Assembly: GCA_002727275.1 (NCBI GenBank)
Contig: PBWO01000019.1
Coordinates: 15,260-79,259, forward strand
Length of the DNA: 64,000 bases
Origin: Methanobacteriota archaeon
Lineage (GTDB): Archaea; Thermoplasmatota; Poseidoniia; Poseidoniales; Thalassarchaeaceae
Reading direction: 5' to 3'
Notes under the pieces: model-generated
Databases searched by the model: none
What the model saw: the letters and a program-made list of their open reading frames with translations, nothing else
Told to the model about the DNA's origin: nothing
Shown here: in pieces, positions 1,402 to 49,638 of the stretch
Position numbering within the stretch: position 1 is the first letter of the stretch
Layout of the letters: each line of letters opens with the position of its first letter
Program-made: the position numbers and the translations under genes

Positions 1402-1982
1402 GAATTGTCTAGATGATGGTGCACTATGGCTACGCAAGAGTGTCCCTGCAGCCACTTTTGACCCACTGAAACTTTGTCAAAATCATCCAGCAATTCTAAC
1501 TCTGATGTGGTGAAAGTCTTGTGATCTGAGAGAACAAATCCAACTTCTTCATCTATAGTTGAAACCTCAATCGGAATCCCTTTAGCATCCATTACTAGTA
1601 TTCTACATCCTTCATCAGACCATTCTTTGAGAGTCTGGTCTAAACTTCCTCCTGAGTGACTAATCCCTCCGGAGTACTCTTCCCAGACTCCCACAGGAGG
1701 CATCCGACTTCTGACGACTGCACGTACATGTCCGGCAATTGATCTCTCGTCTGGATGCACACCTCTGAGTTTGCTACCGTCGAACTTGATTCTTCGGGAA
1801 CCGCTTCCCTCTAGGTGTAGAACAATTTGGGTTTCCTCTCTGATTCCATGCGATATGAACAGAGCAGTGTTTACAGCGCGTAGAAGTACATCCAGTCTAC
1901 CTGCGGCCCCTGCTAGATCATTGAGGGAGAAATCCCCCTTTGCAGGTACATCATGTCCAATTATCGCAAATCTGCGGCCCAG
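1398..1982 (-). CDS. trmY: tRNA (pseudouridine54-N1)-methyltransferase (SPOUT)
   Basis: FSLNDLAGAAGRLDVLLR, SHGIR, PDERS, FVLSDH motifs; probable CTG start at 1982 after GGTGA (ORF track extends to 2018). Confidence 0.88.
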   Translation of the reverse strand: MGRRFAIIGHDVPAKGDFSLNDLAGAAGRLDVLLRAVNTALFISHGIREETQIVLHLEGSGSRRIKFDGSKLRGVHPDERSIAGHVRAVVRSRMPPVGVWEEYSGGISHSGGSLDQTLKEWSDEGCRILVMDAKGIPIEVSTIDEEVGFVLSDHKTFTTSELELLDDFDKVSVGQKWLQGHSCVAIVHHHLDNS

Positions 1983-1986
1983 GATC

Positions 1987-3345
1987 TCACCCCAGGTCCA
2001 GATCCATATCGTCGACATCCATCATCGACTTCATCTTACGGCGGAAACTTCTGTCGCCCTTCATTCCACGCATCATCTTCCGACTGCGATTCCATTGAGC
2101 CAGCAACTCTTTGACATCCTTCTCATCTACTCCCGAACCTCTTGCAATTCTTCTGATTCGACTCGATTTCAACAGAATAGGGGTGTCTTTTTCCTCTTGA
2201 GTCATTGAGTCCATGATGACCCTATACTTCTCGAGATTACCTTGCATCTGCCTCTTTTGCGCTGTACTCATACTGCCCATGCCTCCGAACATAGCATCAG
2301 GCAAGTGAGACAACATCTTCTCGACACTACCAATCTTACTCATCATTTCCATTTGACTGTACATATCAGTCAATGTAAATCTACCAGACATCAGTCGCTG
2401 AGCAAGCCTATTGGCTTCTTCTTGATCTAAATCACCGGGAGCCAAATCAATCAGGCCCTTGATATCTCCAAGTCCAAGTAGTCTTGAGATGAATCTGTCC
2501 GACTCAAACTTCTCCAAATCCTGAACCCTTTCTCCCTCTCCGATGAAAACTATCGGTGCACCTGTGGTAGATACGGCACTGAGTGCCCCTCCACCACGGG
2601 CTGTACCGTCGAGTTTGGTGACAATCGTTCCTGTAACTCCCACAAGCTCGTGAAAGGTTTCAGCAACAGGGCCCGCTGCCTGTCCGACTTGAGCATCAAT
2701 AACTAGGAAACGTTCGGTTGCATTTGCAATCTTTGCAATATCAGCAAGCTCATCTCGTAACTCTTCATCCAGACTGTCGCGTCCGGCAGTATCGATGATT
2801 ACAACCTCGGCATTGCCAACTTCCTTGATTCCATTCCGAACTATTGTAGCGGCATCATTCTGGTCGGGATCTCCATAGACATCTACGTTGGTGTCCTCTA
2901 GAAGTTGCTTGAGTTGTTCATAGGCACCGGGACGGTGCACATCGGCCTCAATTACTGCTACCTTGACTCCGTGCCTACGCCTCCACCAGTCTGCTAATTT
3001 GGCAGTAGTGGTTGTCTTACCCTGCCCGTAAAGTCCGACCATAAGAATTGTCTGATTATGAGGCATAATCTCTCGAGGGGTGCCCAAGAGCCGAACCAGC
3101 TCTAGATAGACTAGGTTCATCGCGTGAGTTTCGAGTTTGACGCCAGGGCGAGGCTCTTCTTCGAGAAGTCGCCTTTCTATCCTCTCTGTGAGCTCTTTAG
3201 ACTGTCTGACGTTAAAATCGGCTTCCAATAGGGCCTTGCGAAGAGTTCTGCTTAACTCCTTAGCAGTCTCCTCATCCACCTTGCGCTTACCCCTCAATAG
3301 ACCGACGGAACCCATTATGCGTCGCTTTAGCCCATCCAGCGCCAT
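1987..3345 (-). CDS. srp54: Signal recognition particle protein SRP54
   Basis: ALLEAD, GLYGQGKTTT, DTAGR, TKLDGTARGGGALS, Met-rich M domain with SRIRRIARGSG. Confidence 0.97.
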   Translation of the reverse strand: MALDGLKRRIMGSVGLLRGKRKVDEETAKELSRTLRKALLEADFNVRQSKELTERIERRLLEEEPRPGVKLETHAMNLVYLELVRLLGTPREIMPHNQTILMVGLYGQGKTTTTAKLADWWRRRHGVKVAVIEADVHRPGAYEQLKQLLEDTNVDVYGDPDQNDAATIVRNGIKEVGNAEVVIIDTAGRDSLDEELRDELADIAKIANATERFLVIDAQVGQAAGPVAETFHELVGVTGTIVTKLDGTARGGGALSAVSTTGAPIVFIGEGERVQDLEKFESDRFISRLLGLGDIKGLIDLAPGDLDQEEANRLAQRLMSGRFTLTDMYSQMEMMSKIGSVEKMLSHLPDAMFGGMGSMSTAQKRQMQGNLEKYRVIMDSMTQEEKDTPILLKSSRIRRIARGSGVDEKDVKELLAQWNRSRKMMRGMKGDRSFRRKMKSMMDVDDMDLDLG

Positions 3346-3387
3346 ACTCGCGGGTCCTGATTGTGTGGTTTGAACATTATCTGAGGC

Positions 3388-4209
3388 GTGGGCCTCAAAG
3401 CCGATGTGCTATGGCCAATCGTGGCAGTCGAGTTGTGGCAGACACAAGTTGCCTTCGCAATCGGGTTACTGGGCATCTATGGTGGTTGGAAGGGCACAAT
3501 CTCGAAGATGACCGGATTTTACGACTTAGCAGGGGCGGTGAAACATCTAATCTATGGCATAGTCGTAGGTATGATACTAGCAGTATTCGTAGACAGAATG
3601 ATACTATCTTCAGTCATTCTATCATATCTCAATATCTTCGGAGCTTTCACAGTCGCCATACTGATCGCTGCGGGAGAGTCGGCCTTCGTTTTATTCATCC
3701 TTTCACGTCCACGAACCGCCTCACTGCGAGCCTCTCCTCCATTTGGATGGACACTGGGTCTTGGAATCGGCTCGATGCAGGCATGCGTCTTAATTTTCCG
3801 ATTATTTGACGAGGAATTAGCATATTCTGGATACTCTGGAGTCAATTTGATCAGCCTATCTTTGGCAACATCAATCGCTTTGTGCTCTTGTTTAGGGCAT
3901 GCCCTCCTTGGTTGTTGGCAAGGAGCACAATTACTGGAATCCAATAGACTGCGACCATTTGTGATGTCAACAGTTTACCGTGGTGCACTGACCGTTTGCA
4001 TCGTACTTGCCTTGTTTACTCCTTTTACTCTGATAGCCGTACTCCCTGGATTGGCTCTTGCATGGAGCAAAGCCCAGTCAAGTTGGCTACTTTCGGGCAT
4101 GACTCCTGCGGCAAAACAGGCATATAGGCGCACAACTAGACAATCAATGCGCCATAAAGCGGCCTCAGATAGTAGAATCAAGGGTGAGTACGTAGATTCC
4201 GACGAATAA
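3388..4209 (+). CDS. Multi-pass membrane protein, possibly degenerate PrsW-like
   Basis: About 7-8 hydrophobic segments and a basic C-terminal tail; start may be GTG 3421. Confidence 0.6.
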   Translation: MGLKADVLWPIVAVELWQTQVAFAIGLLGIYGGWKGTISKMTGFYDLAGAVKHLIYGIVVGMILAVFVDRMILSSVILSYLNIFGAFTVAILIAAGESAFVLFILSRPRTASLRASPPFGWTLGLGIGSMQACVLIFRLFDEELAYSGYSGVNLISLSLATSIALCSCLGHALLGCWQGAQLLESNRLRPFVMSTVYRGALTVCIVLALFTPFTLIAVLPGLALAWSKAQSSWLLSGMTPAAKQAYRRTTRQSMRHKAASDSRIKGEYVDSDE

Positions 4210-4289
4210 ACAATCATTGTTGGCTTTAAGTCGCTTTCAGGCATACGAATGGCGCAGTATTATATTCGCACCGCCGAGGGTTTCACCGC

Positions 4290-5708
4290 ATGCGAGTTAT
4301 CATTGCAGGGGCTGGAGAGATTGGGCGAGGTGTCGCAGAAGCTCTTAGACAAGAGAGCAGAAGCGTTGCTCTAATCGATCCAGATCCTACTGCAATCATT
4401 GAATCTCAGAGTCTCGACTGTCTCCTTATTACTGGCAGTGCATTGTCTCGTGAATCATTACTAAGGGCTGGAATAAGCGATGCTGAGATAGTAGTTTTAG
4501 CGACAAATAATGATGAGACCAATCTTCTAGGGTGCGCCTTTGCAAAGAAGGTCTTTGGTGAACAGGTTGGAGATCGAAGAAGTAGTGGCTTGACCACTAT
4601 TGCCAAGATAAGAGACCCAACCCTTCTAGATCACTCAAAGGGTGCCGGACCTCTGGAAAATTGGTCTAGGGCCGACCATGTAGTCTGTGCCTCCGACGAG
4701 ATCGTAGAACAACTTGCTGCAGGCCTGTTAGCGCCTTCAATAGATGAGATTCTACCTCTAGGTGGGACTTCTTGGATCGCTGTTTCAGAAGTAATGTCTA
4801 ATTCACCTTTGATCGGAACAAAGACGGGCCAAGTTGGTGATATTTTTGTCGGAATTCCTTCAATTTATGCCATCAGGAATCCCGGAGAAATAGGAAGCAT
4901 AGCCACAGGAGATGAGATTATTCAGGAAGGGCAGATTTTAGCATTCGTTTCTCGTTCAACAGACCAATTCCCTCAGATTACTAGGGCCGTAGGGAGGAAG
5001 GATGAGGATTTCCCTGAGAATGCACAAGTTGCAATTTTCGGAGCCAGTAACTTCGGCTCTAGGCTTGCAAAGCATTACCTGAAAAAAGGCTCCAGTGTTA
5101 TTGTAATTGAGCCCGACTTGGACTTGGCCAACGAACTAGTAGGTTCGCCCGTAGGCAACAGCAAGAGACTCGATGTTATCCATGGAGATCCTCAAGATGA
5201 GGAGTTGCTTAGCGAGCTTGGAATTGACAGTCATGACATTGCCGTGGCTGCGTTGGATGACGACAATCTGAACATTGCAATTTCTATGCGTGCCAAGGAC
5301 AAGGGCGTTCCAAGGACCGGGTTATTACTCAAGGATAGGGCCCTTGTGGAAGCAGTTCATAGAATAGGTCTGACCCGACCTGTGAGTCGCAGATTGGTAT
5401 CTGTCACATCTCTTCTTAAGTCAATTCACATGAATGTTCCAGGTGCATATCAGGTGATTCCACCAATGCCTTCGATTATCTCTATCTCCGCTGAGGTCAG
5501 CCCAAATCATTCCTTCGCTGGAAAGTCTGTGAAGGAAGTTGAGAAGGCCATAGGGGCAAGAGTTGTTCTAGTTGATAGGCAAAACGAAAATGGAGAAGTT
5601 GAAGTTCTAAAGCCCTTCATGGTCGAGACAATTGATGTCGATGATAGGATCTACCTGTTCCTCTCTAAGAGTGATCTGAAGAAGGTCGAGAGGGCATTGG
5701 AGAACTGA
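4290..5708 (+). CDS. trkA: Trk K+ uptake NAD-binding subunit TrkA
   Basis: Two RCK-N Rossmann motifs (IIAGAGEIG; IFGASNFG) plus RCK-C domains; adjacent to trkH. Confidence 0.92.
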   Translation: MRVIIAGAGEIGRGVAEALRQESRSVALIDPDPTAIIESQSLDCLLITGSALSRESLLRAGISDAEIVVLATNNDETNLLGCAFAKKVFGEQVGDRRSSGLTTIAKIRDPTLLDHSKGAGPLENWSRADHVVCASDEIVEQLAAGLLAPSIDEILPLGGTSWIAVSEVMSNSPLIGTKTGQVGDIFVGIPSIYAIRNPGEIGSIATGDEIIQEGQILAFVSRSTDQFPQITRAVGRKDEDFPENAQVAIFGASNFGSRLAKHYLKKGSSVIVIEPDLDLANELVGSPVGNSKRLDVIHGDPQDEELLSELGIDSHDIAVAALDDDNLNIAISMRAKDKGVPRTGLLLKDRALVEAVHRIGLTRPVSRRLVSVTSLLKSIHMNVPGAYQVIPPMPSIISISAEVSPNHSFAGKSVKEVEKAIGARVVLVDRQNENGEVEVLKPFMVETIDVDDRIYLFLSKSDLKKVERALEN

Positions 5709-42906: not shown

Positions 42907-43854
42907 CTATTTCCTAGATATTGAGCGACGTGCGGCCTGCACGATATCATCAACAGTCAATCCCATAGTACGCATAAGGTCCGATGTAGAGCCACTTTGT
43001 CCGAATGTATCCCTGACTCCAACCATTTCTAGCGGAGCAGATACATTAGTCGCGAGGTATTCTGACACTGCCCCACCCAACCCTCCAATAACAGAGTGAT
43101 CTTCCGCGGTAACTAAACATCCACAAGATTCAATCTGTTTCTGAATTAATTTAGAATCTAAAGGCTTCAAAGTATGCATATCTACGACTGAAGCACTAAT
43201 TCCTTCAGCAGCAAGTATTTCGGCAGCATTCATTGCTTCAATTACCATTACTCCGCAAGAAATGATGCATACATCTTCTCCATTCTTAATCAGTGAACCC
43301 TTTCCTATCCTTAATTGGGCTACAGATTCTTCATTGTATATCCGAGGAGTTTTGTTCCTAGCCGTTCTCATATATGTGGCTCCATCATGATCAACCAATT
43401 GTACGGTTAATTCTTCTGCAGATAAATCGTCAGATGGAGTTATGACTGACATTCCCGGTATAGTTCTGTAGATGGCTAAGTCTTCAATTGATTGAGCACT
43501 GCTACCATCGGTACCGGTGTGAATTCCTCCGTGGCTACCACAGATATGGACCGTGATTTCAGGCCTAGCTATCCCATTCCTAACTTGTTCAAATGCTCGC
43601 TCTGTAAAAATAGCAAAGGTACTGGCAAACGGGATCTTGCCAGATGATGCCATACCGGCAGCAACCAGCATCATGTTTTGTTCTGCAATTCCCATTGAGA
43701 ATGTCCTATCGGGAAATTCTGTTCTAAAATGACATGATTTGGTGGATTTTCCTAAATCCGCTTCTAGTACTACGACTCTTGGATCTGATGCCAGTCGGAG
43801 TAGACCCTTTCCATATCCATCTCTGGATGCACCTCCCGATGACGGAGCACTCAT
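42907..43854 (-). CDS. Transketolase, C-terminal subunit
   Basis: ADLGKST, GIAEQN, RAFEQVR, TLKPLD, EDHS..GGLG. Confidence 0.94.
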   Translation of the reverse strand: MSAPSSGGASRDGYGKGLLRLASDPRVVVLEADLGKSTKSCHFRTEFPDRTFSMGIAEQNMMLVAAGMASSGKIPFASTFAIFTERAFEQVRNGIARPEITVHICGSHGGIHTGTDGSSAQSIEDLAIYRTIPGMSVITPSDDLSAEELTVQLVDHDGATYMRTARNKTPRIYNEESVAQLRIGKGSLIKNGEDVCIISCGVMVIEAMNAAEILAAEGISASVVDMHTLKPLDSKLIQKQIESCGCLVTAEDHSVIGGLGGAVSEYLATNVSAPLEMVGVRDTFGQSGSTSDLMRTMGLTVDDIVQAARRSISRK

Positions 43855-44681
43855 TTTAACTCCTCCAGTGCTAATGCTAACTCCTGATCATTTGGTGCTT
43901 TACCATGAAATGAGGGATTATTTTCCATGAATGATACTACCTTTCCTTTGACAGTATTTGCTACAATAGCAGCGGGGCCGGAATTATGTGATTCGGCCCA
44001 TTGTAAAGCATCAACAATTTCTTTCATTGAATGACCATCAATCTCTTTGACAGTCCAACCAAAGGAAGATAATTTAGCAGCCACATCTCCTACCTCCATC
44101 TGTAGGTGGACGAAATCATCATTCTGGATTCTATTCCTATCAATAATCACATTCAAATTACCAAGAGCATGGAAATCGGCAGCCATGAAGGCTTCCCAAA
44201 CCTCTCCTTCTTGAATCTCCCCATCACCAAGCATGACCCATATATTTCTCTCACTGTCATCCATTCTAGCGGCGAGGGCACAACCTAGGCCAAAAGACAG
44301 TCCCATTCCGAGACTACCGGCAGAGAAATCCACACCATCAGTCCATTTCATGTCGACATGACCCTGACAAACCGAGCCTAGTTCTCTAAATGACATCAAG
44401 TCACTTTCGTCAAGATATCCTATCTCATGCAATATAGAATAAACAGCGGGACTAGCATGACCTTTACTCATGATGAATCGGTCTCGATCGAACCAATTCG
44501 AATCATTGAGATCAATTTTCATCCTAGTTCCATACAAAGCGGCGAGTAAATCTATTGCAGACAATGAACCGCCAGGGTGGCCCGAATTAGCAGCATGCGT
44601 CATTTTAACAATACTTACTCTACATCGCCGGGCCATATCATCCAATGCTTGCAAATCTAGCCCCATCCCCCCATTGCGCAT
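43851..44681 (-). CDS. Transketolase, N-terminal subunit
   Basis: SGHPGGSLS, DRFIMSKGH, GSLGMG, GDGEIQEG, IDGH, TVKGK. Confidence 0.94.
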   Translation of the reverse strand: MRNGGMGLDLQALDDMARRCRVSIVKMTHAANSGHPGGSLSAIDLLAALYGTRMKIDLNDSNWFDRDRFIMSKGHASPAVYSILHEIGYLDESDLMSFRELGSVCQGHVDMKWTDGVDFSAGSLGMGLSFGLGCALAARMDDSERNIWVMLGDGEIQEGEVWEAFMAADFHALGNLNVIIDRNRIQNDDFVHLQMEVGDVAAKLSSFGWTVKEIDGHSMKEIVDALQWAESHNSGPAAIVANTVKGKVVSFMENNPSFHGKAPNDQELALALEELK

Positions 44682-44798
44682 GATACCAAACAGGTAGTTT
44701 GGCTATTGATGGTTTCCAGCATGAACATACATTCAAGAAGAGTCATAGTTGAATTAAAATTGCATGGCATGTACCAAGTAATGAGGGGGAGTAAACGG

Positions 44799-45983
44799 AT
44801 GTCAGATGACGATTGGAGGCAACGCCTATCTAGAATTGAAATACCAATTTCTGTTTCCTCTAATCAATTCGTAAAATCATGTCTTGACAAGTTAATCAAG
44901 ACTGGTAGACTTTCCAAAAATGACGGGATCAATTTGATGCTTGAACCATCTCTTGTTAGTGTCACTTCGTTAGCAAACATGGTCAAACTAGCTAGACATT
45001 CTGATAATGTATTCTACAATCGAAATCTGCATATCAATACTACAAATATCTGTACACTTGCATGTAGATTCTGTGCATTCCGTAAAGGACCTAAACACGA
45101 TGATGCTTACGAGATGATGCCGAATGAATACATTGAAAGAATCTCTCCTGTTGCTTCTGAAATTGATGAAGTCCATTCTGTAGGTGGTTTACATCCTGAT
45201 TGGAAAGTCGAGCATTATGCTAAGATATACTCTACTATCAAGAATGAATTTCCTCATATACATATCAAGTCATTAACAGCGATAGAGATAATACACATTT
45301 CAAAAAGATCCGGGATTTCTATTGCCAAGACATTAGAGATTCTAAATGAATCAGGACTAGATTCCATACCGGGCGGAGGAGCAGAAATTCTAGTCGATTC
45401 TGTGAGAGATAGGATTTGTCGTGGTAAAGAGTCATCTAATGAGTATCTGGAGGTTCATGCAACAGCGCACAAACTTGGTATCCCTACAAATTGTACAATG
45501 CTCTTTGGTACTGTTGAATCCACCGAAGAACGCATTCAGCATTTGATTCGTTTGCGTAATCAACAAGACACAACCAGTGGTTTCCAATGCTTTGTACCAT
45601 ACCCCTACTTACCAGATTTTTCTCGCCTTCCAGAAGCGCAATTAGCAACTTCGAGTGAAGTAGTAAGAATGATTGCAGTATCTCGTCTCATGTTGGACAA
45701 TATTCCCCATATCAAGGCGTATAGGATGAATTTGGGCGATCATCTCTCTGCAATCTGTCTTAATGCTGGTGCCGATGATATCGACGGAACCGTAGGCCAT
45801 GAGGAAATCATGCACGATGCTGGTAGCACGACTAGACTTGATACATCTGAGGCAGAGTTGGTCAGATTGATTATGTCATCGAACTCAACACCGATTAGAC
45901 GAAACTCTACTTATGATCATTTCATCGAGGTTGAATCCGATTTTAATGGACTAAGAATAAATCTTCCAGTAAATAGTTGGTGA
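44799..45983 (+). CDS. mqnE: Radical SAM aminofutalosine synthase (MqnE; CofH/MqnC family)
   Basis: TNICTLACRFCAF, VGGLHP (MqnE-like rather than the QGG of MqnC), PGGGAEI, HIKAY; next to mqnA. Confidence 0.8.
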   Translation: MSDDDWRQRLSRIEIPISVSSNQFVKSCLDKLIKTGRLSKNDGINLMLEPSLVSVTSLANMVKLARHSDNVFYNRNLHINTTNICTLACRFCAFRKGPKHDDAYEMMPNEYIERISPVASEIDEVHSVGGLHPDWKVEHYAKIYSTIKNEFPHIHIKSLTAIEIIHISKRSGISIAKTLEILNESGLDSIPGGGAEILVDSVRDRICRGKESSNEYLEVHATAHKLGIPTNCTMLFGTVESTEERIQHLIRLRNQQDTTSGFQCFVPYPYLPDFSRLPEAQLATSSEVVRMIAVSRLMLDNIPHIKAYRMNLGDHLSAICLNAGADDIDGTVGHEEIMHDAGSTTRLDTSEAELVRLIMSSNSTPIRRNSTYDHFIEVESDFNGLRINLPVNSW

Positions 45984-45987
45984 AATT

Positions 45988-46785
45988 ATGAGTTGGACAG
46001 ATGTTCTTGGACGGGTTTCTTTCAGTAACTGCGATCCAGTTTTCTATGGCATTTCTGAACGCTGGAAAGTTTTCTCTGCCCCACCTTCTTGGCTATGTGG
46101 TCACGTACTTAGGAGAGACTGTATTGCAGCTCCAATTCCAACTGCAGATTATGCCAAAAACAAAGACGAACTAATGTTACTTCCGGATCTAGCAATAGTG
46201 AGTAGAGAGAGTACAGGTTCCGTACTAATCTTTGGAAATAGACCATTAGAAAATATGCGCGATATCGCAGTTCCTACAGATTCTTCTTCATCAAGACAAT
46301 TACTAGATTGGATTCTAAATGAAAAGGGCCTAGACCCCAGGAGGGTAGAGATGGCACCCGATTTAGGGCAGATGCTCGAAGAGTGTGATGGCGCCTTAAT
46401 CATAGGTGATAGGGCCTTAATCGAGTCCAAATCAAATCCCAAACTAATCGTAATGGATTTGGGTGCAGAATGGACAAAAATTACAGGATTACCAATGGTT
46501 TTTGGCGTATTTGCCGCTAGAAAAGATACTGATATGATATCTTTGTCTGAGGCCCATTCAGACATGATTGAGCAACTAGACAAATTCTACAATGATCTAT
46601 CATGGAGAGCCGAGGTGATTAAGCAAGCATCAGCATCTACTGGACTAACTGAGACCAGATTAGACAACTATTACTCAACAGAGGTTTGGAACCTATTAGA
46701 TCCAGAAGCAGTAAAGGGTCTTGATTTGTACCTTGATCTGGTTTGCGGTGTTAGTGAAGGAGCGATTTGGGCTAAATTTGACTAG
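45988..46785 (+). CDS. mqnA: Chorismate dehydratase
   Basis: LGRVSFSNCDP, SVLIF, ALIIGDRAL, DLGAEW..TGLPMVFGV. Confidence 0.9.
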   Translation: MSWTDVLGRVSFSNCDPVFYGISERWKVFSAPPSWLCGHVLRRDCIAAPIPTADYAKNKDELMLLPDLAIVSRESTGSVLIFGNRPLENMRDIAVPTDSSSSRQLLDWILNEKGLDPRRVEMAPDLGQMLEECDGALIIGDRALIESKSNPKLIVMDLGAEWTKITGLPMVFGVFAARKDTDMISLSEAHSDMIEQLDKFYNDLSWRAEVIKQASASTGLTETRLDNYYSTEVWNLLDPEAVKGLDLYLDLVCGVSEGAIWAKFD

Positions 46786-47258
46786 TTATCATAATTCAGT
46801 CTCTTACTCTCAACCCATTCGAGCAAATCAATTGCTACCTCACAAGACTCAGAAATTACTGGCTCAGGATCATCTCTATACTGCATCAACGTGTCGATAG
46901 CAGTTCTATCACCTATTGCCCCTAAAGCTTCGGCAGCCTCATGTCTAACCATAAGGTCCTCATGATCGTCGCTCAAGCGCTCAATAAGACAAGGAACAGC
47001 ATACGAGTCTTGCATCTGCCCCATCACATACGCTATTTCGTGCTTTAGAAGAGCAGATTGAGATGAAAATGCTGCGGCCAATGCATCAAGAGCTTCAGGT
47101 CCCCCTTGATTCCTAAGTGCAAATAATGCCCTCATTCTCAAGAACATTTTCTCATTTTCATTACAAATTGTACTTCTCAATTCTGCGATTTTTCCACTAT
47201 CTGATGCTGGCGCTGGATCAACAGAACCAAATTCACTAACTTCGGGCTTATCTGACAT
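46782..47258 (-). CDS. Half-length deoxyhypusine hydroxylase-like HEAT-repeat protein (158 aa)
   Basis: SVDPAP, RALFALRN.GG, SALLKHEIAYVMGQMQD, MVRHEAAEALGAIG, ESCEVA: hallmarks of one DOHH dyad half. Confidence 0.88.
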   Translation of the reverse strand: MSDKPEVSEFGSVDPAPASDSGKIAELRSTICNENEKMFLRMRALFALRNQGGPEALDALAAAFSSQSALLKHEIAYVMGQMQDSYAVPCLIERLSDDHEDLMVRHEAAEALGAIGDRTAIDTLMQYRDDPEPVISESCEVAIDLLEWVESKRLNYDN

Positions 47259-48101
47259 TCATTCACCTATGAATTCCATGCTCTGAATATCGAATCTTTC
47301 ATCGACGAGGCCAATCTTCTGCCCTTCCGCCAGAAACCTCCTAACAGCTTCTCTACCATCTGGGCCATAATCAATTGTCCTAGGATTGACGTACATTCCT
47401 ACGAATCTTCGATTGGTATCATCGTCAATGCCTCGACCCCATTGCTTAGCAAATTCAAGTGCTGAATCTGGATTCTCCAGTGCATATTCGATACTATGAC
47501 GAATATCTTCAGCTATCGAACTGCACAATTCAGACCCCAGATCTTTACGTATGATATTGCCGCCAAGTGGCAAGGGCAGTCCATCAGTTCTATCTTGCCA
47601 CCATTGTCCGAAGTCAAGGATGTGATACATTCCTTCGTCCCTCCAAGTTAGTTGGCCCTCGTGAATAATTACTCCGAAATCATAGTCACCACGCTGTAGT
47701 GATGGAATGATATCATCAAATGGTACAATTGCAGTCTGCACATCGCCCAACGCTAGTCGGAGCGCTAGATAAGCACTAGTCCCAAGACCCGGAATCGCAA
47801 TGACTGATTCCTTCGCCTCGCCGATGTTGGATTCACTATTAGAAATTAGAATTGGTCCATATCCCTCACCCATGGATGCGCCGCAATTAGTCAATGAATA
47901 ATGATGTGAAATTTTTGGGAATGAATGAATGCTTACGGCAGATACTTCAAACTCTCCTTGAGCCGATTTTTGGTTTAGAGATTCGATGTCCAATAGTCGA
48001 TGTTCATACACTCTATCTGCGGTGTCGATTAGGCCGTTTGTCATTGCATGGAACATGAAAGCATCATCAGGGTCCGGGGAGTGTCCTATGCGTATGAGCA
48101 T
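47259..48101 (-). CDS. mqnD: 1,4-dihydroxy-6-naphthoate synthase
   Basis: GHSPDPDDAFMF, DIESLN, GEGYGP, IIHEGQ, LPLPLGG, MYVN. Confidence 0.94.
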   Translation of the reverse strand: MLIRIGHSPDPDDAFMFHAMTNGLIDTADRVYEHRLLDIESLNQKSAQGEFEVSAVSIHSFPKISHHYSLTNCGASMGEGYGPILISNSESNIGEAKESVIAIPGLGTSAYLALRLALGDVQTAIVPFDDIIPSLQRGDYDFGVIIHEGQLTWRDEGMYHILDFGQWWQDRTDGLPLPLGGNIIRKDLGSELCSSIAEDIRHSIEYALENPDSALEFAKQWGRGIDDDTNRRFVGMYVNPRTIDYGPDGREAVRRFLAEGQKIGLVDERFDIQSMEFIGE

Positions 48102-48392: not shown

Positions 48393-48426
48393 CCAAGTTC
48401 ATTTGCCTAGACTTCTGAATCACATC

Positions 48427-49638
48427 ATGGCAGAGGGCTGGAGTCGTTTCGCTGTCAGGTTTTCAGACTATTACAACTCAATATCTACCGATTCCATTTG
48501 GATGCCTCCTAGGTTTAGATCTAGAGAATGGATGTTCATACCTTGGGGGAATCTGCCACCGGCTCGTCATGTTGGATTTGGTACTAAACCAGAATTACAT
48601 AATTACCTGAAGATGAATTCGCCTCATTCATGTTTCCACAGTACTGCATACTATACAGACCCATTCCAAACAAAAATGGTCGATAAAGGCTGGAAGGGTG
48701 CTGACTTGATTTTTGATTTGGATGGAGACCACCTTCCTGGAGTTTCCGATCGCGATTTCCCAAGTATGTTGGAATTAATTCAAGAACAAGCATGGACACT
48801 TTGGTCGGATTTCTTATCTCCTGAGTTTGGTTTCGAAGAGAAGTATTTGCAGGTTTCATTTTCTGGGCACCGAGGATTCCATATCCACATTCGTGATCCC
48901 AAATATTTGCATCTTGACTCAAATGCACGCCGGCAACTAGTGAATCATATCCGCGGAGAAGGAGTTAATGTTCAGGCACTGATGAGTAATGACAGTGGAA
49001 GGTGGAAAGACCGTCTTTCTTCCGGGCAAAAAACTCTAATTGAAAAAATGAGAAACATTGCCTTGAAAAAAGATGAGAATGATATTATCCTAAATGAACT
49101 CGATGAAATCATGAAACAGAGACTTCGTAGTCCAGATTGTAAGATCCAATCGTTTAGCAAGAAGAACATATTTTCACTTTCTGAGCAATGCTTGAATGAT
49201 TCAAAGATTGAAAGATTAACTTCTGATTCATCAAAAACAGTTTTCGGTGAAAAAGGTACAGCCGCATTCTTTGAACTAGTGAAGGGCGACTCAGCAGTAG
49301 TTTTGGGTGAAGCTGGAGAGACTGATGAAAATGTCACAGTTGATGTTAAACGCGTTATTCGTTGGATAGGCAGTCTACATGGGAAATGTGGATTGAGAGT
49401 TACTGAACTACCCCTTAGTAGACTTGACCCTGAAACTTCTGATAGGTTTGATGCACTCAATGAGGCGGTTGTATTCAGTTCTTCAAATTCATTTAATGTT
49501 GAAATTATTCAGGATGATGTCCGCGCAAGGATATTAGATTGTGAAATCGAAGGTTCTACTGGCGATGTGTTCAACGTACCAGAGAGTATGGGGGGATTCT
49601 TAATTCTGAAAGGCTGGGCTAAGGTAATGCCGAATTAA
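48427..49638 (+). CDS. priS: DNA primase catalytic subunit
   Basis: REW, STAYY, GADLIFDLDGDHL, FSGHRGFH, DENVTVDVKRVIR..GSLHGK. Confidence 0.95.
   Translation: MAEGWSRFAVRFSDYYNSISTDSIWMPPRFRSREWMFIPWGNLPPARHVGFGTKPELHNYLKMNSPHSCFHSTAYYTDPFQTKMVDKGWKGADLIFDLDGDHLPGVSDRDFPSMLELIQEQAWTLWSDFLSPEFGFEEKYLQVSFSGHRGFHIHIRDPKYLHLDSNARRQLVNHIRGEGVNVQALMSNDSGRWKDRLSSGQKTLIEKMRNIALKKDENDIILNELDEIMKQRLRSPDCKIQSFSKKNIFSLSEQCLNDSKIERLTSDSSKTVFGEKGTAAFFELVKGDSAVVLGEAGETDENVTVDVKRVIRWIGSLHGKCGLRVTELPLSRLDPETSDRFDALNEAVVFSSSNSFNVEIIQDDVRARILDCEIEGSTGDVFNVPESMGGFLILKGWAKVMPN

Follow-up and report, generated by a model that had tools for sequence, protein, structure and literature searches.

A half-size homologue of deoxyhypusine hydroxylase in marine Poseidoniales archaea: a candidate homodimeric di-iron enzyme

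We analyzed a 64,000-nucleotide stretch (the window) of a genome labelled Methanobacteriota archaeon (Thermoplasmatota, Poseidoniales, Thalassarchaeaceae; assembly GCA_002727275.1, contig PBWO01000019.1, positions 15,260 to 79,259 of the forward strand), which carries a gene for a half-size homologue of eukaryotic deoxyhypusine hydroxylase (DOHH). We consider it probable that this gene encodes a homodimeric, O2-dependent di-iron hydroxylase of deoxyhypusine on the archaeal factor aIF5A. In the mechanism that we propose, each chain would supply one DOHH unit of four HEAT repeats, and two identical chains would face each other in the way that the N-half and the C-half do within eukaryotic DOHH. 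H73, H106, and E107 of each chain would hold one iron, with the di-iron centre on the two-fold axis, and each SVDPAP arm would lie across the partner chain in place of the eukaryotic inter-domain linker. Deoxyhypusine synthase (DHS) would place deoxyhypusine on the lysine of the aIF5A PGKHG loop, and the dimer, using O2, would convert it to hypusine.

A one-unit homologue of DOHH

A first-pass annotation of the window, made from the sequence before this analysis, had described a complete gene of 158 residues, which the open reading frame (ORF) listing and translation bear out. The gene and its signature motifs are located as follows.

46782..47258, minus strand: half-size DOHH gene, an ATG ORF of 158 aa with the stop codon in the span; four HEAT repeats and an N-terminal arm
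47208..47225, minus strand: codons of S12-P17 (SVDPAP) in the N-terminal arm, the motif of the eukaryotic DOHH inter-domain linker
47037..47042, minus strand: codons of H73-E74, the first His-Glu motif, aligned with human H56-E57 and H207-E208
46938..46943, minus strand: codons of H106-E107, the second His-Glu motif, aligned with human H89-E90 and H240-E241

All motifs quoted in the first-pass annotation are present in the translation, namely FGSVDPAPA (10-18), RMRALFALRNQGG (41-53), SALLKHEIAYVMGQMQD (68-84), MVRHEAAEALGAIG (103-116), and ESCEVAID (137-144), and 33 residues separate H73-E74 from H106-E107. The start residue is the same in aligned orthologues. The ratio of nonsynonymous (dN) to synonymous (dS) distance was 0.047-0.069 in the 3 of 15 close pairs with a computable synonymous distance; in the remaining 12, dS was saturated and dN was 0.07-0.12. 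The ORF is a real gene under purifying selection.

Searched with phmmer against all PDB chains, the protein matched human DOHH (4d4z) best, with an E value of 5.7e-71. It aligns with this chain twice, once between residues 27-150 and chain positions 15-138 (118.5 bits) and once between residues 4-148 and positions 143-287 (122.9 bits), the latter stretch including the SVDPAP linker. Designed alphaRep proteins followed, and the best natural HEAT protein other than DOHH was the CpcE lyase (5n3u, 6.6e-06), a difference that sets the protein apart from generic HEAT proteins. Pfam recognized generic repeats only (HEAT_2, 1.8e-17; HEAT_PBS, 3.1e-15), and NCBIfam gave only sub-threshold matches to phycobilisome (PBS) lyase models, including NblB (1.5e-09, 37.7 bits against a cut-off of 300) and CpcE (29.2 bits against a cut-off of 330).

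AlphaFold2 predicts eight helices in four hairpins, preceded by a low-confidence N-terminal arm (mean predicted local distance difference test score, pLDDT, 89.5; predicted template modelling score, pTM, 0.82). The best fold match to this monomer model was again 4d4z, with a template modelling (TM) score of 0.85 and 46% identity, and alphaRep designs came next (TM 0.65-0.68). Based on the match to both halves of human DOHH and on this fold match, we conclude that the window protein is, by alignment and modelled structure, one of the two units of a DOHH. Its best 120 longer relatives span 290-330 aa at 43-53% identity, and nearly all named ones are deoxyhypusine hydroxylases; representatives that we looked up include Porphyridium, Geosiphon, and Plasmodiophora. 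Relatives of similar length number 1900 at E ≤0.001, and the best 120 of these 1900 are 151-177 aa. hmmsearch delimited one unit in each half-size protein and two units in 106 of 113 tallied representatives of up to 480 aa.

Active-site residues and a predicted homodimer

Each half of eukaryotic DOHH contributes one iron triad; the first-pass annotation had named ligands from both halves for each iron. According to the available text of the review PMC9117371, H56, H89, E90, H207, H240, and E241 anchor the di-iron centre of the human enzyme, and E57, E90, E208, and E241 together with two glycines bind the deoxyhypusine side chain. The paper prints "G65"; our alignment puts the N-half glycine at H56+7, and we hence take it as G63. 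In the alignment to 4d4z, H73, E74, G80, H106, and E107 of the archaeal protein correspond to human H56/H207, E57/E208, the LGQ glycine, H89/H240, and E90/E241, respectively.

We aligned 22 half-size proteins, drawn from 10 or more GTDB families, and found 29 invariant columns. Present in 22/22 are D14, P15, A16, P17, H73, E74, G80, Q81, R105, H106, E107, E110, G113, and C139, so that both His-Glu motifs, whose conservation the first-pass annotation had asked to see checked, are invariant. A further comparison found 25 columns in which archaeal, N-half, and C-half units all carry one and the same residue, each at 80% conservation or more. Each chain carries two His-Glu motifs, versus four in a eukaryotic DOHH chain; the predicted dimer has four. 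From the alignment, each chain would hold one iron triad (H73, H106, E107) and half of a substrate pocket. The description as a one-unit DOHH homologue fits these residues well, with one His/His/Glu triad and the substrate-linked positions kept throughout the 22 proteins.

Because there is one copy per genome, a functional site would need two identical chains. A prediction with two chains and two Fe(II) ions gave ipSAE interface scores of 0.88, 0.88, and 0.89, against 0.00 for the best of three controls, and thereby favors the homodimer that the first-pass annotation had called for. Partner pLDDT was 91 or more, and the runs had at least 67% of their contacts in common; in calibration of the tool, the mark was reached by 20 of 30 solved homo-pairs and by 1 of 23 single chains. 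The predicted interface is symmetric and comprises 45 residues, including the arm (5-17), H106, and flanking helices. Residue 145 of one copy contacts residue 16 of the other in the model, which is the geometry that the eukaryotic fusion needs. What the model shows is that two copies fit against each other in the manner of the human DOHH halves; it is no proof that they bind.

Distribution, substrate pathway, and oxygen

The half-size gene is single-copy in the window genome (1.38 Mb, 83% complete, 6.2% contamination), with one match even at E values up to 10; a split gene with its second half elsewhere was set aside on the same search, at that completeness. Eukaryotic contamination was likewise rejected: the contig of at least 79 kb also carries aIF5A, and synteny of the locus extends over 78 of 80 Poseidoniales records, among them three with single-isolate titles (AG-313-L18, AG-319-P11, and AG-422-I20) and single-contig genomes. 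The survey of Poseidoniales that the first-pass annotation had proposed found a match at E ≤1e-10 in 155 of 201 genomes, mostly one per genome (family f1, 68/99; f2, 2/2; f3, 84/99).

Across Thermoplasmatota, 110 of 401 genomes had a match. Outside Poseidoniales these fall in f29 (18/19), f10 (7/9), f26 (3/3), f28 (2/6), and f18 (1/1), with single genomes in f33, f34, and f48; the one match in f16 (1/53, genome G383) is a generic HEAT protein at 32% identity. All Thermoplasmatota matches are half-size if one disregards the spurious upstream extensions that occur in GC-rich genomes. The named half-size matches listed all come from metagenome-assembled genomes (MAGs) labelled Thermoplasmatota or Euryarchaeota, apart from one "Halobacteriales archaeon" MAG. 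That protein (P0480, 158 aa) lies on a 6670-bp contig and shares 52% identity with the f18 protein; a binning or labelling problem may lie behind it, or a genuine second phylum.

The window genome also encodes aIF5A (TIGR00037, 114 bits, above the cut-off; loop SKSKPGKHGSAK, its lysine being K37 in our count), on the window contig about 50 kb from the half-size gene, and DHS (PF01916, 298 bits) on another contig, C11. Of the 109 genomes with the gene, 104 have the cytochrome oxidase subunit COX1 (PF00115), as do 69 of the 292 without it (hand count over the 401 Thermoplasmatota genomes, G383 left out), an association that is descriptive only, since the genomes are kin and not independent. The COX1-free families f5 (0/14), f6 (0/48), and f19 (0/24) have no match, and the gene is nearly confined to cytochrome-oxidase lineages. 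The O2-dependent hydroxylation of aIF5A put forward in the first-pass annotation is in keeping with these counts and with the presence of aIF5A and DHS in the same genome.

Two further genes lie outside the window. A second, more distant DHS-family gene lies at G000:C45:4501-5400 (L014; PF01916, 143.7 bits). Directly upstream of aIF5A and just before the window, a 452-aa ORF (L015 20..1378, plus strand; G000:C7) has many Asp-rich repeats (DTDDDNDG-like) and a hydrophobic C-terminal tail.

Several observations, together with the kinship of the genomes counted above, weigh against the proposed function. The search of 201 Poseidoniales genomes left 46 with no match; within the genus of the window genome, the gene is present in one of nine other genomes and was not found in eight, and in three same-genus genomes it is cleanly gone or replaced at the same locus. 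In G045 (same genus; L118 about 2421..2437), two PF02621 genes abut and the half-size gene between them is absent; in G013 (L116 about 2831..4383), about 1.55 kb of other sequence separates the PF02621 genes. In G031 (same genus; L117 602..2155, minus strand), a 517-aa ORF with a DUF531 end (PF04407, 4.6e-24) occupies the place; it keeps the arm, about the first 20 residues (MSEDKPDTDEFGSVDPAPPS), followed by unrelated sequence, and gives the impression of a chimeric gene that replaced the original one and kept its start. Based on the absence in 46 genomes and the clean loss within the genus, we conclude that the gene is dispensable. This is paralleled in yeast, where lia1 mutants are viable according to the available text of PMC8153317.

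Further points on the same side concern setting, chemistry, and modelling. Families f4 (0/10), f22 (0/9), and f23 (0/5), and also f35, bear COX1 and lack the gene, and neither aIF5A nor DHS was found beside it at any of 112 loci (tblastn, E 1e-3). Early amino-acid analyses, as related in the available text of PMC5178350, found deoxyhypusine and not hypusine in Euryarchaeota, including "thermoplasmales"; the cultured strains analyzed may belong to families without the gene. The interface takes in 17 of the 29 invariant residues, versus 8.3 expected (hypergeometric p 1.6e-4), which speaks for the dimer, but this enrichment is tied to the alignment that the model received, and the high dimer score may reflect the model's memory of the solved human N/C interface. 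The functional assignment as a whole is computational: homology, residue conservation, copy number, phyletic pattern, and purifying selection are observed, and dimerization, iron binding, substrate, and activity are inferred.

Origin of the half-size form

To compare the archaeal proteins with each eukaryotic half, two-unit proteins were split into N and C units by a hidden Markov model (HMM) of the half-size family. Proteins of 270-420 aa in which both units covered HMM positions 35-146 were kept, and 100 passed this filter; only 12 chosen proteins from the best 120 longer relatives entered the tree set. The trees used HMM columns 25-152, leaving out the arm. A FastTree analysis of 100 N, 100 C, 22 archaeal, and 6 outgroup segments recovered an N clade (support 0.84) and a C clade (0.91), with 12 archaeal proteins sister to the C clade (0.97) and 10 outside. 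A quick-search IQ-TREE analysis under LG+C20 with posterior mean site frequencies (PMSF), which used 28 of the 100 two-unit proteins with the 22 archaeal proteins and 6 outgroups, gave an N clade with a Shimodaira-Hasegawa-like approximate likelihood ratio test (SH-aLRT) support of 89, a C clade with 98, and two archaeal clades with 86 and 88, all in a polytomy.

Four constrained topologies (N with C, archaeal with C, archaeal with N, archaeal alone) were compared on 52 rows from 16 two-unit proteins, 16 of the 22 archaeal proteins, and 4 outgroups. They lay at most 3.7 log-likelihood units apart, and none was rejected by the approximately unbiased (AU) test (p 0.30-0.57). The first-pass annotation had offered two origins, a form that predates the duplication or a reduced gene transferred from eukaryotes. 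The trees disfavor the second as a recent transfer from a crown eukaryote, with the C clade (98) and the N clade (89) both excluding the archaeal proteins. Between a pre-duplication form and an ancient derivative of the C-half, the tree data do not decide.

It is possible, though short of probable, that the half-size protein is the ancestral, pre-duplication DOHH and that, in aerobic archaea, hypusine was already being made by a homodimeric di-iron enzyme. The eukaryotic enzyme would then descend from a fusion in which the C-terminus of one subunit became continuous with the SVDPAP arm of its partner. Core identity hints at this: the archaeal proteins share 42.5% identity with N units and 43.7% with C units, versus 38.3% between the N and C units of one protein, so the core is nearer to each half than the halves are to each other, and the first-pass remark that the protein mixes features of both halves holds. 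The placement of the archaeal proteins outside both clades is a second hint, and a third comes from the dimer model, in which the C-terminal helix of one copy would touch the arm of the other.

It is also possible, though short of probable, that the half-size form derives by truncation from the C-half of a complete DOHH, acquired either from an early eukaryote or from an archaeal ancestor whose gene was full-length. The linker before the C-half has the SVDPAP arm in common with the archaeal proteins, and N-halves have no such arm; 12 columns (arm included) agree with C and not N, against 3 that agree with N and not C; and the half-size HMM scores C-halves above N-halves (e.g., 201 versus 161 bits), in the same direction as the FastTree placement of 12 archaeal proteins. 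However, the four groups form a polytomy under the site-heterogeneous model, none of the constrained topologies is rejected, and the C clade does not enclose the archaeal proteins. An ancestral half-size subunit, moreover, would be expected to carry the arm at its N-terminus as well.

Relation to known systems

The archaeal protein resembles eukaryotic DOHH (human 4D4Z/4D50, yeast Lia1, Drosophila nero) in its 43-53% identity over nearly the whole query, its HEAT fold (TM 0.85 to 4d4z), the 33-residue His-Glu spacing, the LGQ glycine, and SVDPAP, and the substrate pathway of aIF5A and DHS is likewise present in the archaeal genome. It differs in being one four-repeat unit of about 158 aa, whereas eukaryotic DOHH has about 300 aa with eight repeats. 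In the archaeal form SVDPAP belongs to an N-terminal arm, in the eukaryotic one to an internal linker. The archaeal form also differs in its archaeal host, its predicted homodimeric state, its frequent loss, and its two His-Glu motifs per chain. Active DOHH holds two Fe, forms a stable peroxo-diiron(III) species, and hydroxylates deoxyhypusine-eIF5A with O2; for the archaeal form, the near restriction of the gene to genomes with COX1 points the same way indirectly. DOHH is described in the available text of PMC8153317 and PMC9117371 as eight HEAT repeats in one chain forming a dyad of two four-repeat halves. The half-size chain has four of these repeats, and a dyad is conceivable for it only as a homodimer.

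PBS-lyase HEAT proteins (CpcE/CpcF, NblB, MTH187), the basis of the alphaRep designs, share the repeat type, and the archaeal protein is similar in size to small archaeal HEAT proteins (1te4, E 3.3e-4). The likeness is far weaker than to DOHH (TM 0.56-0.68 versus 0.85 for 4d4z), and in our own reading of the phmmer alignments, the alphaRep sequences do not have His-Glu at both motif positions. The hosts of the half-size gene are heterotrophs without phycobilisomes, unlike the PBS-lyase setting. By analogy, and judging from the model, one archaeal product would do by symmetry what two diverged repeats do in one eukaryotic chain. The same pattern is known from histones, which form homodimers in archaea and heterodimers in eukaryotes.

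The available texts of three papers (PMC5178350, 2016; PMC7432094, 2020; PMC8153317, 2021) report DHS in archaea and no DOHH orthologue, in agreement with the first-pass statement that no archaeal DOHH is established. Hypusine is reported from Crenarchaea, and mostly deoxyhypusine from Euryarchaeota, in the available text of PMC5178350. Our literature search, with subscription papers and supplements lying outside it, found no paper tying DOHH to Poseidoniales, Thermoplasmatota, or Asgard archaea and no description of an archaeal or half-size DOHH; PMC13602936 does not mention DOHH. Databases already carry names for such proteins: relatives of similar length are "HEAT repeat domain-containing protein" at NCBI and "deoxyhypusine monooxygenase" at JGI, and the ESM Atlas automatically names archaeal clusters of 159-162 aa "Putative deoxyhypusine monooxygenase." The novelty thus lies in recognition and analysis and not in a first sighting, given the automatic DOHH tags and the lack of a printed description in our search.

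The half-size form is a clear DOHH homologue, in minimal form, in very abundant marine archaea. It makes testable whether some Euryarchaeota-type archaea produce true hypusine with O2 and whether a four-repeat unit can build a HEAT-fold di-iron site by symmetry, and it bears on how the duplicated eukaryotic DOHH arose. If the pre-duplication origin is true, hypusine hydroxylation would be an archaeal invention or early acquisition and not a eukaryotic one. Hypusine in Crenarchaeota is left unexplained, with no named Crenarchaeota member among the matches listed and no dedicated search made there.

Other functions and genomic neighbors

The half-size gene lies between two genes of the MqnA/MqnD family PF02621, as follows.

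47263..47267, minus strand: Shine-Dalgarno-like GGTGA, 4 nt 5' of the ATG and within the 3' end of the upstream gene (sequence reading only)
47259..48101, minus strand: upstream co-oriented MqnA/MqnD-family gene (PF02621; Pfam VitK2_biosynth 7e-63)
45988..46785, plus strand: convergent second PF02621 gene (Pfam 3.2e-44), context only

The upstream PF02621 gene ends in TGA at 47259..47261 and the half-size gene begins with ATG at 47256..47258, leaving no gap; the GGTGA motif and the start directly behind the upstream stop are thus where the first-pass annotation had seen them. Its label "mqnD" stands at the level of the family, to which both MqnA and MqnD belong in Pfam; NCBIfam gives no match. 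Because the stop abuts the ATG, the half-size gene and the upstream PF02621 gene probably form one operon. The end of the convergent PF02621 gene and the stop of the half-size gene overlap by 4 bp.

This neighborhood raises an alternative that counts against a role in aIF5A modification, namely that the protein is a HEAT oxygenase, di-iron or mono-iron, that acts on another substrate, for which a step linked to menaquinone or respiratory quinone metabolism is the candidate. At 78 of 80 Poseidoniales loci, a PF02621 gene of the same orientation lies immediately 5' of the half-size gene, 5-56 bp away, in the window the two abut, and one genome (G015) has an in-frame 460-aa fusion of PF02621 and the half-size unit. 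The fusion ORF (L114, G015:C2:118600-122100, minus strand, about 1487..2869, junction ...IEFVGETVSPPRSRFDSVDPAPP) may stem from a lost stop or an assembly error. We nevertheless regard this alternative as improbable. The linkage ends at the order boundary, with 0 of 15 loci of other Thermoplasmatota families having PF02621 within about 1.5 kb. The two genes also part ways by family: f29 has the half-size gene in 18/19 genomes and PF02621 in 0/19, f28 has them in 2/6 and 0/6, and f35 has PF02621 in most genomes and the half-size gene in none.

Outside Poseidoniales, the neighbors are unrelated (peptidase M28, PurH, SfsA, Ser/Thr kinase), and no shared neighbor of the half-size gene was found in the loci compared there. 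The residues that bind deoxyhypusine in the human enzyme are invariant in the half-size proteins, and to our knowledge, the known futalosine pathway needs no hydroxylase, which we count against a quinone step. We attribute the PF02621 linkage to operon history within this order, perhaps with regulation in common with aerobic respiration, and not to a common chemistry.

A non-catalytic HEAT-repeat protein with DOHH-like residues, whether a scaffold, a metal binder or sensor, or an aIF5A-binding factor, is an unlikely alternative too, even though Pfam sees only HEAT_2 and HEAT_PBS, the NCBI family name is a generic HEAT one, and a single unit carries only half of the eukaryotic ligands. Both His-Glu motifs and 25 further columns common to both eukaryotic halves are kept at 40-45% overall identity, conservation that is hard to explain without a metal site; the confinement of the gene to oxidase-bearing lineages and the strongly purifying selection also speak for a di-iron hydroxylase over a scaffold.

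The locus varies in other ways among Poseidoniales. At L032 and L060, the upstream PF02621 gene is missing, and a 411-aa ORF (a homologue of window 48403..49638) lies about 350 bp upstream. An insert of about 2.3-2.7 kb separates the half-size gene from the convergent PF02621 gene at L023, L024, L039, L044, L049, L065, and L082-L084. Among metatranscriptome contigs, one of 172 nt (run X1) falls within the half-size gene (46797-46968, 0 differences) and two of 151 nt (run X2) fall within the upstream PF02621 gene; these come from RNA libraries with small word shares (0.08), are no proof of transcription, and leave the uncovered parts uninformative. In the window, a radical-SAM MqnE/MqnC-like gene at 44706..45983 (plus strand; TIGR03700, 388 bits, below the cut-off of 434.55) rounds out a small futalosine-pathway cluster, and a 276-aa ORF at 43851..44681 (minus strand) reads as the N-terminal part of a putative split transketolase.

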